A stretch of 33,238 nt of DNA, taken from the NCBI GenBank assembly GCA_018175035.1, contig GCA_018175035.1_4099.2, one strand, 5' to 3'. Numbering within the stretch: the first letter of the stretch is position 1; every line of letters starts with the position of its first letter. Of the stretch, positions 22,929-29,496 are shown in pieces. The position numbers were made by a program, and so were the translations under genes. A model generated the notes under the pieces. It was not told the origin of the DNA and did not search any database. It saw only the letters and a list, made by a program, of their open reading frames with translations. This stretch comes from a phage.

Positions 22929-23080
22929 ATTTTATTTCCTCTTATTAATAAACAACTACTTTTACAGATTGTTGTACCTTTTATATTTACACCGTCAACT
23001 AAATATCCACCTAAAGTGAATGGAAATTGGTCTTGTCCTGCGATTGGTTTTCCCATTAAGGGCACTCCTTATAAAAAAGC

Positions 23081-23110
23081 TTTACATTTGGTATGTGTTT
23101 GTGATAGAAT
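23081..23110 (+). promoter_or_regulatory. Candidate sigma70 promoter TTTACA-N18-TGaTAGAAT
   Basis: -35 TTTACA 23081-23086; extended -10 TGaTAGAAT 23102-23110. Confidence 0.4.
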
Positions 23111-23175
23111 CTTCACAGTGATTGTACTAAGGGGATTATCAGATGAGGGAAATTTGAGTTAAGTACAGAAAAAGT

Positions 23176-23204
23176 TTGACTTAAGTGTTTAAGTACTATA
23201 TTAT
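23176..23204 (+). promoter_or_regulatory. Candidate sigma70 promoter TTGACT-N17-TATTAT
   Basis: -35 TTGACT 23176-23181; -10 TATTAT 23199-23204; about 35 nt upstream of the 23238 gene. Confidence 0.45.
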
Positions 23205-23237
23205 TTATATCTTCCTAACCAAAATTAAGGATTTGTT

Positions 23238-26988: not shown

Positions 26989-28428
26989 ATGAAAAAATAT
27001 ACAATTGACACAAACGTACTACTATCTGACCCTAATGCATCTATTGCTTTTGATGGTGCTGCAATCATTCTACCATTTACAGTACTGGAAGAATTGGATT
27101 CAATTAAGAGTCGTAATGTAGATGTTTCACGCGATGCTCGTGTTGCTATTCGTAACATTGAAGCAATTATTGCAGATGCATCACATGATGAGATTAGTAG
27201 TACTGGTGTTAATATTGCTGATGTTCATACCAATATGAATCCTGATAGCAAATTGTTTGTTATTACAAACGAAGAAGCTGAAGCACTAATTCGTACTAAA
27301 GGTTCAGAAGAGAAAGTTCAAACCCTTCTCAAAAGCACAGTACCTGATGATAAAATCATTCTGGTAGCTTTAGCAACAGAATCAGTACTGGTAACTCGTG
27401 ATATCAACATGCGTATCAAAGCACTAAGTTATGGTGTCGAGGTACAAGATTATCGCCATGATATTGTTATTGGTGATAGTGATTTGATTCACATTGGTCA
27501 ACACCATTTGGAAATTAATTTTTGGGAAGTATATAGCAACTTATCCAATACTAATATTCAATCCGAACAAGTTGGTCGTCGTTTGTATCATTACATTTCT
27601 AAAAGCTTGATTGAACATTTGCTTCCACAAAATCTATGCATCGGTGATTATCTATATGATGATGCAGACGTATTATTTGTGTACGAAGGTCAATCAGCAA
27701 TTGAGGAAGATGATGGAACACTAACACCAGAAGATATTTTGGTATTCCAAGATATTGGACAATCAGTAGCTTTACGTGCTAAAGTATGGGATATTAAAGC
27801 AAAGAATATCCAACAAGCACTCGCCATCAACAGTATTCTCGATCCTGATGTACATCTAACAGTACTGCTAGGTTCTGCTGGTACTGGTAAAACACTAATT
27901 ACGATTGCTACTGCATTAGAATTAGTACTGGAAAAACGTAAATACGACCGAATCATCTTCTCTAAAACTCAAGACTCACAGTTTGAAGATATTGGTTTCT
28001 TGCCAGGTTCAGAAGCAGAAAAAGTGATTCCATTCTGTGGAGCCGCAATTGACGCGTTAGAGTTTCTTCATAAAGATGATGCTAACCCACAAGGTAGTAT
28101 TGAAGAGATTATGAAACGTAATGTTATTCAATTTAAAGCACTAAACTTTGTACGTGGACGTTCATTCACCAACACTATTCTAGTAGTTGATGAATTCCAA
28201 AACATTACACCTGCACAAGCCAAAACAATCTTGACACGAGCAGGATTAAACTGTAAAGTAGTAATTATGGGTAACTTGAGTCAGATTGACAGTAAGTTTA
28301 TTAGTCCTGTTAACAGTGGTTTGACATATGTAACTGAGAAGTTTAAAGATTGGGCAGGTTGTCGTGTCATCGAACTAGAAGGTGTTGTTCGTTCACCACT
28401 TGCAGAATTTGCTGAAGAAAATATGTAA
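26989..28428 (+). CDS. phoH: PIN-domain PhoH-like ATPase (PhoH2/YlaK-type)
   Basis: N-terminal PIN-like region (YTIDTNVLLSDP...LEELD); Walker A GSAGTGKT, Walker B VVDEFQN; 479 aa. Confidence 0.85.
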   Translation: MKKYTIDTNVLLSDPNASIAFDGAAIILPFTVLEELDSIKSRNVDVSRDARVAIRNIEAIIADASHDEISSTGVNIADVHTNMNPDSKLFVITNEEAEALIRTKGSEEKVQTLLKSTVPDDKIILVALATESVLVTRDINMRIKALSYGVEVQDYRHDIVIGDSDLIHIGQHHLEINFWEVYSNLSNTNIQSEQVGRRLYHYISKSLIEHLLPQNLCIGDYLYDDADVLFVYEGQSAIEEDDGTLTPEDILVFQDIGQSVALRAKVWDIKAKNIQQALAINSILDPDVHLTVLLGSAGTGKTLITIATALELVLEKRKYDRIIFSKTQDSQFEDIGFLPGSEAEKVIPFCGAAIDALEFLHKDDANPQGSIEEIMKRNVIQFKALNFVRGRSFTNTILVVDEFQNITPAQAKTILTRAGLNCKVVIMGNLSQIDSKFISPVNSGLTYVTEKFKDWAGCRVIELEGVVRSPLAEFAEENM

Positions 28429-28431
28429 TAT

Positions 28432-28465
28432 TGTATGGGACATTATGTCCCATACATGATATAAT
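28432..28465 (+). promoter_or_regulatory. 25-bp near-perfect palindrome (12-bp arms) overlapping a promoter with extended -10
   Basis: Arms 28432-28443 / 28445-28456 (TGTATGGGACAT-T-ATGTCCCATACA); TGaTATAAT 28457-28465; -35 position GGGACA inside the palindrome. Confidence 0.4.
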
Positions 28466-28496
28466 GTTGTTATCATAATACAGAAGGAGATATAAA

Positions 28497-28685
28497 ATGG
28501 CTAAACAACCTAAGAAAAAAGAACCAGTAGCAAAAGTTAAGAAAGAGAAAGTTATTCAATCTAAAGAACAACGTATGTACGAACAACGTAAGAGTGAAAC
28601 CCTATCCGGTCTTCAAGCTCTACGCAAACAAGGTGTACTAACTCGTGCACAGTACCGTGAACTAGTAGCTCAGAAAGGTTTTTGA
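28497..28685 (+). CDS. Small basic protein with SHOCT-like C-terminus (tentative)
   Basis: AGGAGA SD; Lys-rich N-terminus; C-terminus LSGLQALRKQGVLTRAQYRELVAQ. Confidence 0.5.
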   Translation: MAKQPKKKEPVAKVKKEKVIQSKEQRMYEQRKSETLSGLQALRKQGVLTRAQYRELVAQKGF

Positions 28686-28704
28686 TTCATTTGAAGACAT
28701 ATTG

Positions 28705-28769
28705 TGGAGTTCTTAATAAATACTTTTATAAGAATAATAATACTTTTTATTAAATTAAAAAGAACTCCA
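28705..28769. repeat. 10-bp inverted repeat flanking a 45-nt A+T-rich segment with short direct repeats
   Basis: TGGAGTTCTT (28705-28714) / AAGAACTCCA (28760-28769); internal ATACTTTTAT and ATACTTTTTAT. Confidence 0.3.
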
Positions 28770-28788
28770 TGTGTTATTTCAGTTTTTC

Positions 28789-28816
28789 GTCCCTGTCTTT
28801 TGGCAGGGATTTTTTA
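28789..28816 (+). terminator. Rho-independent terminator
   Basis: Stem TCCCTG / CAGGGA, 8-nt loop, then TTTTTT. Confidence 0.6.
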
Positions 28817-28911
28817 TATCTATATCTTGACAAAAGGAACAAATCATGAGAACATGTATTAAAGGAAGAATGACTTTCCATTAGGTTATTTTAACTTAAA
28901 GGAGATTTCAT

Positions 28912-29469
28912 ATGTTTTTTGACCAAACATTTACGTTGTATCACGATTCTGGTAAAGTTGAGATTATTGATAATCTGTTAGAGTACATTGCGGAACATGA
29001 CGGTATAGACCGTTTCCACAGTAAGATGAAATTCGATTTAGCTGAATTCAACAAAAAGAATCGTGAAACATTTTGGAAGAACCGTTTCTATTACGAAATG
29101 TTTCCAGAAAAGTTTGTGGGTTATTATCTTTGTACTGAAAAAGGATTACTTGTATCTCCTGATTTACTTATGGGTGAATACATGATACTCTATAATGAGT
29201 ACTGGGAACATAAACGTAAAGCTCGTGATACGGAATGGCGACATAAGCGTTCGTATATGTACAAACATAACCACTCCCGATACAAGCGTCCTAAGACACA
29301 ACAAGAGCGTCGTATGGCTTGTGCAGTACTGAAGGATGAGGGGGAACCTGATATACGTGGAAGACGTAAGATGCGTTCATTACCATCGTATTGGGACGAT
29401 ATCAGAACAAGACATAGTACTGGCTGGAAATACAGTACTAAACGTAAACATCAATACAAAGGGAGCTAA
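28912..29469 (+). CDS. Hypothetical protein with Arg/Lys-rich C-terminal half
   Basis: AAGGAG SD; 185 aa. Confidence 0.6.
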   Translation: MFFDQTFTLYHDSGKVEIIDNLLEYIAEHDGIDRFHSKMKFDLAEFNKKNRETFWKNRFYYEMFPEKFVGYYLCTEKGLLVSPDLLMGEYMILYNEYWEHKRKARDTEWRHKRSYMYKHNHSRYKRPKTQQERRMACAVLKDEGEPDIRGRRKMRSLPSYWDDIRTRHSTGWKYSTKRKHQYKGS

Positions 29470-29496
29470 TGCTCCCTAATTTTATAGGTGAACTTT

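Follow-up and report, generated by a model that had tools for sequence, protein, structure and literature searches.

A 226-bp intergenic region of an Asteriusvirus jumbo phage with a conserved mini-open reading frame and a putative late promoter set in a hairpin

What does a phage keep between two genes in a stretch of DNA that appears to encode nothing? This question is raised by the 226-bp gap at positions 28,686-28,911 of a 33,238-nt stretch of phage DNA (NCBI GenBank assembly GCA_018175035.1, contig GCA_018175035.1_4099.2), the whole of which is called the window here. The gap is placed between an open reading frame (ORF) of 62 amino acids (aa) and one of 185 aa, downstream of a PIN-PhoH fusion gene, and all of these are on the plus strand. 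A first-pass annotation of the sequence had described the gap as unusually long non-coding DNA holding an inverted repeat, a terminator and an orphan TTGACA, and had offered a small RNA, a replication or packaging element or a factor-dependent promoter as its possible content. We found that the gap is indeed among the longest in the window, but that it is not non-coding throughout, since a conserved ORF of 12 codons lies inside it. Every functional statement in this study is based on sequence, folding and comparison, and on this basis we think it fairly likely that the gap represents the junction of two transcription and translation units, built from three functional parts and one scar.

The 601 bases at 28,400-29,000 were 100% identical to the Escherichia phages vB_EcoM_G17 (G17), CRJP21, Sharanji and E9.1 and 88-99% identical to about 30 further Asteriusvirus jumbo phages of the PBECO4/121Q group, which have genomes of ~350-380 kb. 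By its sequence, the window is that of an Asteriusvirus jumbo phage of the G17/PBECO4/121Q group. For comparison, regions of 100-130 nt upstream of the 185-aa gene were taken from GenBank phage records, IMG/VR, JGI and European Nucleotide Archive (ENA) metagenomes and Logan assemblies. The gene coordinates of G17 (MK327931.1, 275841-309078) were not colinear with the whole window outside ~26-31 kb, indicating that the window and G17 differ by insertions and deletions (indels) elsewhere, and coding status within the window was therefore judged from the window's own ORFs. The first-pass annotation had named a lack of conservation in relatives as the observation that would speak against it; this is clearly not what we saw, and the region was conserved across genera.

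A search of the gap for an ORF shorter than 30 aa, which had been suggested as a check, revealed a 12-codon mini-ORF (MRTCIKGRMTFH) on the plus strand, with its ATG at 28,846, its TAG at 28,882-28,884 and an AAGGA Shine-Dalgarno (SD) sequence 7 nt upstream. The mini-ORF was conserved in 27 of the 27 related lineages examined, with a length of 11-13 codons, and ended 24-31 nt before the main start codon of every 185-aa homologue among them. A recognisable SD was present within 16 nt upstream in most copies (none was evident in lineage L023), and in Hallingskeid itself the start codon is TTG. The mini-ORF also stayed with the 185-aa gene under a different upstream neighbour, a tyrosyl-tRNA synthetase gene in lineage L131. 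No coding sequence (CDS) was found at the position of the mini-ORF in the annotated records examined.

The encoded peptides include MKDTFRGRMTFH (A4), MKKLIRGRMTFH (RaK2), MKKKHKGRMTFH (Munch), MKLFTKGRMSFRL (Yen9-04), MKKLTKGRMTFY (CBB and GAP32), MKKLHKGRMSFA (Hallingskeid type), MKYNFRGRMSFR (L131) and MKENFKGRMSYH (L133). Across 21 distinct sequences, Met9 and Phe11 were invariant, position 6 was Lys or Arg and position 10 was Thr or Ser; L133, which is outside those 21, carries Tyr at position 11. The codons varied beneath the conserved residues: Gly7 was encoded by GGA, GGT, GGC or GGG, and Arg8 by AGA, CGC, CGT or CGA. The Arg8 codon switched even within Asteriusvirus, from AGA in the window to CGT in ph0011 and CGC in A4. 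A switch from AGA to CGN of this kind is what one would expect if the frame is translated and its peptide is under selection. Moreover, in genomes that keep the upstream genes, the start codon of the mini-ORF either overlaps the stop codon before it, as ATGA in A4, or adjoins it, as TAAtATG in Munch, which suggests that the mini-ORF may relay translation from the upstream cistron. We considered and rejected a fusion of the mini-ORF with the 185-aa gene by programmed bypass or frameshift: the spacer varies between 24 and 31 nt in steps other than multiples of three, and no conserved pair of take-off and landing codons was seen.

We identified a second feature where the mini-ORF meets the 185-aa gene, namely a hairpin over the start site of this gene (28,870-28,911, plus strand; -12.2 kcal/mol, z = -3.2) that consists of three stacked helices. 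The apical helix pairs UUAGGUUA (28,881-28,888, including the stop codon of the mini-ORF) with UAACUUAA (28,892-28,899), the SD helix pairs UUUCC in the Phe-His codons (28,875-28,879) with GGAGA (28,901-28,905), and the start-codon helix pairs AUGA in the Met9 codon (28,870-28,873) with UCAU (28,908-28,911), just before the main ATG. When relatives were folded singly, the same architecture was obtained in 24 of 24 (-7.5 to -18.6 kcal/mol) and in three further lineages. The sequence of the apical helix changed between lineages with its pairs kept, as in AUUAAG/CUUAAU, GUUAAG/CUUAAC, AUUAGUG/CACUAAU, UUAGUG/CACUAA, AUUAUGA/UCAUAAU, AUUGUGA/UCAUAAU, AUUAAGUUA/UAACUUAAU and UAUUA/UAAUA. Pairs were counted on a helix-anchored alignment padded with N so that MAFFT kept the register. 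Standard pairs occupied 89.3% of cells, compared with 72.6% after shuffling (a level reached by 0 of 500 shuffles) and 36-57% when the partner strand was slid by 1-3 columns; by helix, pairing was 100% in the apical, 92% in the SD and 77% in the start-codon helix. We also compared start-site accessibility among 70 genes in eight loci, and six of the eight homologues of the 185-aa gene were among the ten least accessible, with mean unpaired probabilities of 0.11-0.31 compared with a median of 0.48 for the other genes.

These observations suggest how the two features may work together. The SD and start region of the 185-aa gene would be base-paired to the last five codons and the stop codon of the mini-ORF, and a ribosome on the mini-ORF would have to melt all three helices, thereby exposing the start site. 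At the stop codon, the ribosome would still cover the 5′ strands of the helices, and the SD, 17 nt further on, would be just outside it and free. We infer, then, that the mini-ORF is translated and that the 185-aa gene depends on it: the 185-aa protein would be made only when the mini-ORF is translated, by translational coupling through RNA unfolding, which is probably the best reading of the start-site hairpin together with the mini-ORF.

Several observations weigh against this reading. Turkey5 and JNE01 encode MKKHTGKQPFH, with GKQP in place of KGRMT, and retain the hairpin, indicating that the peptide core is not indispensable; their 185-aa homologue is unusually divergent (~59% identity). 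Part of the peptide conservation, at codons 9-12, could stem from a requirement to pair with GGAG and CAU-AUG, and not from the peptide. The alignment used for the pair counts was hand-fitted to the proposed helices, which inflates the pair percentages, and the single-sequence folds and the helix variants are therefore the sturdier evidence. RNAalifold on a plain MAFFT alignment of the start-site hairpin gave no consensus structure, as was also the case for the unfitted alignment of the upstream hairpin element described below, because indels misalign the arms in both.

The retention of the hairpin in Turkey5 and JNE01, where the peptide core is not kept, also bears on the possibility that the mini-ORF is untranslated or irrelevant and that the conserved hairpin alone blocks the 185-aa start, with relief coming from a protein, from temperature or from cleavage of the RNA. 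In T4, there are start sites blocked by hairpins where no upstream ORF exists (PMC3014915). However, the start codon, frame and length of the mini-ORF were kept in 27 lineages despite indels, with an SD recognisable in most, and codons 6-8, which are for the most part not in the helices, show constraint on the encoded amino acids, with the AGA/CGN switch at Arg8. We consider this explanation quite unlikely and continue to favour coupling. Coupling alone leaves the conservation of the peptide core unexplained. The K-G-R-M-T/S-F core may stall the ribosome on or close to the stop codon, perhaps depending on a phage or host factor, and so gate the synthesis of the basic 185-aa protein; we regard this as doubtful when taken jointly with the riboregulator proposed below for the upstream hairpin.

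Upstream of the mini-ORF, the gap is predicted to form a 92-nt imperfect hairpin (28,691-28,782, plus strand) with an A+U-rich top. Its folding energy was -20.5 kcal/mol (z = -4.2), with none of 200 shuffled sequences equally stable, and the hairpin and the terminator together reached -35.9 kcal/mol (z = -5.5). The lower stem is formed by GAAGACAU and AUGUGUU..AUUUC. The middle stem is the 10-bp inverted repeat reported in the first-pass annotation, which we found to be perfect (TGGAGTTCTT at 28,705-28,714 and AAGAACTCCA at 28,760-28,769) and which a repeat search extended to 15 nt at 87% complementarity. The 45-nt loop between them is A+T-rich and carries direct repeats, as had been described: the 9-nt AATACTTTT occurs at 28,719 and 28,739, and these repeats are genus-specific and not tandem.

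The element between the small upstream gene and the terminator was conserved across at least five genera. It is single-copy: the 15-mer GACTCCATGTTGTTT occurred once in each of 12 RaK2-like contigs in IMG/VR, and no second copy of the element was found in the window. RaK2 itself lacks the hairpin element. Munch, Yen9-04, CBB, GAP32 and Hallingskeid have a corresponding hairpin, AACAACAU/AUGUUGUU, around the same box, and the Asteriusvirus counterpart, GAAGACAU/AUGUGUU, carries an extra inner stem, which is the 10-bp inverted repeat. Substitutions in the 5′ arm mostly retained G-U pairing (ph0011, L094/L119, L124, Hallingskeid and L133), and one A-to-U change in GAP32 breaks a pair; this pattern fits an RNA helix and is not statistically decisive. 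The columns that were invariant across genera comprise ATAAATA, an A+T-rich A.AA.AATAA.AA.A and a box, ACTCCATGT (28,764-28,772, plus strand), in the 3′ arm of the hairpin. Since the inner helices differ between genera, the invariant A+T-rich part appears to be constrained as primary sequence and not as structure. Searches of the gap region for a tRNA, a tmRNA or a tandem repeat found none. Against Rfam 15, every match in the window was far below the gathering score, and the CBB, Munch and Hallingskeid loci gave no match at E <= 0.1.

The invariant ATAAATA (28,716-28,722, plus strand), in the 5′ half of the hairpin, matches the core of a T4-type, gp55-dependent late promoter. We found AATAAATA at 28,715-28,722, followed by the A+T-rich CTTTTATAAGAATAATAATA, and the heptamer was invariant in 18 aligned element sequences. 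It was strongly avoided elsewhere, with two copies on both strands of the 33-kb window compared with 23.3 +/- 4.5 expected, of which the copy at 28,716-28,722 is the sole one on the plus strand. In 19 related loci (~100 kb), 18 plus-strand copies were observed against ~45 expected, 17 of the 18 at this very site, and the minus strand had none. Placement was then examined in a 50-kb structural-gene stretch of G17, which held nine copies compared with ~35 expected. Seven of the nine lay 29-51 nt upstream of co-oriented start codons, each of a gene with an SD, and the downstream genes include the tail sheath gene and five described as structural.

These observations agree with the literature. For CBB and GAP32, Buttimer et al. 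predicted that the late promoter consists of ATAAATA and an A+T-rich stretch after it; they listed 35 such sites in CBB, observed that the motif resembles T4 TATAAATA and pointed to a sigma factor of the gp55 kind (PMC5259590). We found that the late sigma factor of CBB has homologues with 74-76% identity in Escherichia jumbo phages of this genus, and that it has distant matches to annotated gp55 of T4-like cyanophages. Three marks of this promoter class were found: a core sequence (TATAAATA, or ATAAATA/CTAAATA in RaK2-like phages), avoidance together with placement, and a gp55-like sigma factor. Given the invariance, depletion, placement, literature prediction and sigma factor, we take 28,716-28,722 as a late promoter core that points rightward, and we infer a start of transcription near 28,729. 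The site probably acts as a factor-dependent late promoter, and the earlier suggestion of such a promoter in the gap probably holds in this form, at a site within the hairpin and not at the TTGACA. The other copy in the window has the full T4 consensus TATAAATA on the minus strand (23,202-23,209), inside a 218-nt gap (23,020-23,237). It faces the only minus-strand ORFs of the window, namely one with an ATG and AAGGAG near 23,056 and one of 125 aa (22,928-22,551), and is probably a second late promoter.

A pre-late transcript of this region would begin further upstream. We identified a promoter-like site on the plus strand upstream of the 62-aa gene (28,437-28,465), with GGGACA, a 17-nt spacer, TATAAT and a TG before the second hexamer, which scored 10/12 with TG in a promoter scan. 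Its layout is the same as that of the TG[GA]AAC-N14-TGnTATAAT class, the second promoter class described for CBB (PMC5259590), and in CBB-type relatives we found this class directly upstream of the hairpin element. The site is probably the start of a pre-late transcript running into the hairpin and terminator. Such a transcript of the PhoH-like and 62-aa genes would end in the long hairpin followed by the intrinsic terminator, and the late core, embedded between the hairpin arms, would be read by the gp55-like sigma factor. RNA started at the late core would lack the 5′ arm, so that the box, ACUCCAUGU in the RNA, would be exposed in late RNA and paired in earlier RNA. In folding, the unpaired probability of the box was ~0 in the long-form RNA. 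In the short form of the window, starting ~6 nt past the core, box bases 1-7 were unpaired with probabilities of 0.87-0.99 and the last two with 0.48 and 0.11. The same switch from paired to unpaired between the long and short forms was seen in all seven lineages folded.

The late core lies ~67 nt before the terminator in the window, and the likeliest product of a late start would thus be an RNA of ~85-90 nt. Late transcription would reach the terminator and probably yield mainly this short RNA, with a hairpin and a U tail, along with some read-through. One point counts against the junction described above: with a strong terminator 67 nt further on, the late promoter has no obvious protein-coding target in this genome. 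The small RNA envisaged in the first-pass annotation remains plausible, though unproven, as the role of the promoter-bearing hairpin.

In a rival reading, the hairpin and terminator are chiefly a gene for a small regulatory RNA, whose late form of ~85-90 nt would expose the CUCCAUG box and act in trans on messages of the phage or its host. The element is a stand-alone unit in CBB, GAP32 and four metagenomic relatives, made of a promoter of the second class, ~135 nt without an ORF and then a terminator, and this speaks for the RNA or the DNA element as the functional product in its own right. The U-tailed terminator end is as in Hfq-type small RNAs, the longer pre-late form keeps the box paired, and the box switches in all lineages folded. 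Furthermore, past the promoter core the sequence shows more conservation than a promoter would call for, and the element is kept in the lineage of the window although the gene that it precedes elsewhere is lost; the lack of an Rfam family match is compatible with such a gene. However, the internal helices are not conserved between genera, and no target was found in one scan of start regions of the window: the best duplex (-16.7 kcal/mol) did not surpass shuffled seeds (median -16.3), and the gene starts used were mis-mapped. We regard a dedicated small RNA gene as possible, with the balance tilted against it. The promoter within the hairpin may yield two riboregulator forms, a pre-late one with the box masked and a late one with the box exposed, which, jointly with the nascent-peptide reading of the mini-ORF, we hold to be doubtful.

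Several ORFs run over this part of the gap. Longer candidates at 28,704-28,862 (52 aa), 28,769-28,849 (26 aa) and, on the minus strand, 28,774-28,881 (35 aa) were rejected: they cross the hairpin and terminator without an SD, and the frame is broken in ph0011 and different in A4. Short CDSs deposited across the hairpin and terminator in BAU.Micro_ELP-22 (L006:1814-1963) and WPEC5 (L008:1810-1920) are almost certainly spurious. Also considered was a leader ORF opening at the invariant AUG at 28,769, which overlaps the mini-ORF start as ATGA and would block terminator formation when translated. It was rejected, as it has no SD and is, up to the terminator, no more open than the other two frames; across relatives, neither the frame nor the length of ORFs opening at the invariant AUG is conserved. 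In Serratia phage BF (L081) and in L066, the ORF from the invariant AUG runs past ACTCCATGT and through the terminator in frame with the nucleotidyltransferase-like gene, which is probably chance.

The hairpin element is followed by a predicted intrinsic (Rho-independent) terminator (28,789-28,816, plus strand). The terminator claimed in the first-pass annotation was recovered by a scan as a 9-pair stem at 28,789-28,810, with 5 G-C pairs and a loop of 4, followed by TTTTTT, and the same terminator was annotated by the authors of the G17 and UE-S1 records. All relatives have a terminator at the equivalent position, with differing stems. Outside Asteriusvirus, 10 of 13 lineages carry, immediately before the hairpin, a segment complementary to the 5′ terminator arm (p <= 0.016 compared with shuffles). 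This pairing covaries with the terminator, as in UGGCCUU/AAGGCCA (CBB), GGGCUUA/UAAGCCC (Hallingskeid), CGGCU.AGUAG/CUACU.AGGCCG (L094) and UUAGUG-CCU/AGGCCACUAA (L086), and in these genera it is, as judged from the pairing, the signature of a terminator/antiterminator choice.

Such a choice would be central if the region were an attenuator, in which the upstream strand pairs with the 5′ arm of the terminator, the polymerase reads on and the hairpin domain serves as a protein or ligand sensor. Besides the pairing in 10 of 13 lineages changing in step with the terminator, the minimum-energy fold of the CBB long form is the antiterminator, and in genomes with the pairing the terminator and the next gene lie too close together for a promoter to fit. 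However, none of the five Asteriusvirus sequences, the window among them, shows the pairing above chance (p > 0.5), which also tells against our own account of the locus and indicates that in the window the mechanism is absent or replaced. An attenuator is therefore, in our view, improbable here. In the sister genera, the hairpin element may double as a terminator/antiterminator switch, an idea that belongs with the riboregulator and the nascent peptide and is as doubtful as they are in combination.

A role in replication or packaging had also been offered in the first-pass annotation. The hairpin element occurs once per genome and is A+T-rich, with a promoter beside an easily melted stretch, and this layout recalls that of T4 oriF and oriG, which combine a promoter and an unwinding element. 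However, there are no iterons or tandem repeats, and the 9-nt direct repeat has only two copies and is genus-specific rather than conserved. Cumulative GC skew rises steadily through the region with no change, and RaK2 is without the element altogether. The promoter is moreover of the late type, and T4 late transcription needs prior replication. An origin or packaging site is scarcely credible, and we found no support for this suggestion.

Downstream of the terminator, pairwise alignment of the window with A4 and Turkey5 showed homology through the terminator to 28,816-28,820, which resumes at 28,846 or later. The intervening lineage-specific joint (28,821-28,845, plus strand) holds the TTGACA (28,827-28,832) and the SD of the mini-ORF, AAGGA (28,834-28,838). 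In A4 (L003:1931-2677), Turkey5 (L011:1945-2679) and JNE01 (L012:1882-2616), a gene of 244-248 aa lies directly after the same terminator. Its homologues, with 28-55% identity, are at the same place in phages of Salmonella (Munch), Yersinia (fHe-Yen9-04), Pectobacterium (CBB), Cronobacter (GAP32) and Erwinia (Hallingskeid). The ~240-aa homologues share a motif, G-S ... P-x-D-I-D, that looks like a nucleotidyltransferase signature, and Pfam gave a weak DUF6932 match only. The gene is absent from the lineage of the window and from RaK2, which makes a presence/absence polymorphism exactly at the gap. We take the joint to be a scar of 25-30 nt left by the loss of this nucleotidyltransferase-like gene, and the "unusually long" gap is partly its remnant. 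Relatives that have the ~240-aa gene often carry one or two small membrane ORFs after it. In RaK2 (L014:2300-2430) and L133 (2280-2440), small hydrophobic ORFs of ~40-53 aa that are not annotated lie between the terminator and the mini-ORF, and these probably encode small membrane proteins like those annotated in CBB and GAP32.

A further possibility is that the TTGACA is the -35 element of a working host-type promoter that restarts transcription past the terminator where the gene was lost. The hexamer is a perfect sigma-70 -35 element and, as the first-pass annotation had noted, lacks a good -10: the scan found no second hexamer with at least 4/6 matches at 16-18 bp. The best candidate is TGaGAACAT (28,847-28,855) at a spacing of 17 bp, which derives from codons 1-4 of the mini-ORF. 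Its TG is well placed, and the hexamer keeps the A at position 2 and the T at position 6; however, GAACAT matches only 3/6, and the site was not reported by the scan. The block TTGACAAAAGG is invariant in four sublineages that share the joint arrangement and vary in its flanks, but the AAAGG part of this block is explained by the SD of the mini-ORF. Of the 17 plus-strand copies of TTGACA, all but this one lie within plus-strand ORFs, although the hexamer is not rare in the window (19 copies on both strands compared with 37 expected, which is not surprising alone). A promoter directly past a strong terminator would be useful, but a start ~7 nt downstream, near 28,862, would fall within the mini-ORF and cut off its start codon. 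We therefore consider a promoter at the TTGACA unlikely.

The genes on either side of the gap were examined as well. The small basic gene reported upstream was confirmed as a lysine-rich ORF of 62 aa (28,497-28,685, plus strand; phrog_24119, hypothetical in the G17 annotation), and the gap starts at its stop codon. Directly past the stop codon of the PhoH-like gene lies a perfect 9-bp inverted repeat, TATGGGACA/TGTCCCATA (28,433-28,453), which overlaps the -35-like part of the TGGGACA-N-TGaTATAAT site upstream of the 62-aa gene. It may serve as an operator, or it may form the hairpin at the 3′ end of a transcript; in Rfam, it gave only a weak, non-significant match to freshwater-2 (E = 0.06). 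In JNE01 (L012:191-1471), the PhoH-like gene and the small basic gene are separated by an extra gene of 426 aa, indicating that the neighbourhood is a hotspot of gene gain and loss.

The 185-aa gene (28,912-29,469, plus strand) belongs to phrog_12793, a family of unknown function, and occurs only in RaK2-like jumbo phages. Homologues of its protein were found in 70 phage records and in 20 protein clusters among 5.8 billion. AlphaFold predicted a confidently folded domain at the N-terminus, a long helix and a tail that is disordered and very basic, with a mean predicted local distance difference test (pLDDT) score of 66.9; Pfam gave no match, and Foldseek against the PDB gave none at E <= 0.001. 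A palindromic hairpin, AGGGAGCTAATGCTCCCT (29,460-29,477), overlaps the stop codon of the gene and was terminator-like on both strands in the scan.

Jumbo phages of the RaK2 group are being gathered for therapy, and their gene control is almost unknown. The gap provides two testable control points that annotation pipelines have missed, the mini-gene and the structured late-promoter element. The mini-gene is too short for gene finders, and it is conserved while the protein that it would control has diverged to ~35% identity. Should its peptide affect the ribosome, this would be a rare case of a regulatory nascent peptide encoded by a lytic phage, and if the hairpin element yields a late small RNA, this would add to the very few riboregulators of virulent phages. 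The depletion and placement of ATAAATA, both observed directly, give independent support from Asteriusvirus for a late promoter that was previously a motif-search prediction in CBB and GAP32 only. Each of the mechanisms discussed has a well-known precedent; these instances are unannotated in the records examined, absent from Rfam and unmentioned in the literature searched.

Among such precedents, the PeSL cassettes of T4-type phages, reported by Arbiol et al. in 2010, are said to consist of an early promoter nested in a stem-loop. Like them, the element here has a promoter within inverted repeats, is intergenic and lies beside a gene presence/absence polymorphism. However, PeSLs are dispersed in multiple copies and have host-type early promoters, whereas this element has a late-type core and occurs once per genome, and we rejected a reading as a PeSL-like dispersed repeat on the grounds of this single copy. 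With the predicted late promoters of RaK2-like phages (PMC5259590), it shares the heptamer and the A+T-rich sequence, the phage group and the gp55-like sigma factor; unlike those sites, it is outside the published list, which covers only the upstream regions of structural genes, lies in a non-structural region and is followed by a terminator. A parallel in layout is provided by T4 gene e and I-TevI, where a late promoter lies within the DNA encoding the 5′ strand of a hairpin and the late RNA cannot form that hairpin (PMC3014915). Here too, a T4-type late core lies between conserved hairpin arms, and RNA reading through from early or middle promoters would form the hairpin. In T4, however, the freed 3′ arm is a ribosome-binding site, whereas here ACUCCAUGU has no SD and a terminator follows.

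For the mini-ORF and the start-site hairpin, the RNA-unfolding model of translational coupling has been established elsewhere, for f1 genes VII/IX, MS2 coat-lysis and E. coli rpmI-rplT (reviewed in PMC12548453). As in those systems, the 3′ end of the upstream ORF is paired with the SD and start region of the next gene, and the stop-to-start distance of 24-31 nt would place the freed site just outside the terminating ribosome. Unlike in plain coupling, the upstream ORF has only 12 codons and no evident other role, and its peptide core is conserved across genera. Another comparison is with leader-peptide attenuation and nascent peptides such as those of ermC, cat-86, cmlA, secM-secA and tnaC. 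We know of no arrest motif that the mini-ORF peptide resembles in sequence, and the case differs from those systems in that one lineage has lost the peptide core and kept the hairpin. The likeness lies in the arrangement: in these systems as in the mini-ORF, the 3′ part of a short ORF hides the downstream ribosome-binding site, and the conserved residues are found near the C-terminus of the leader.

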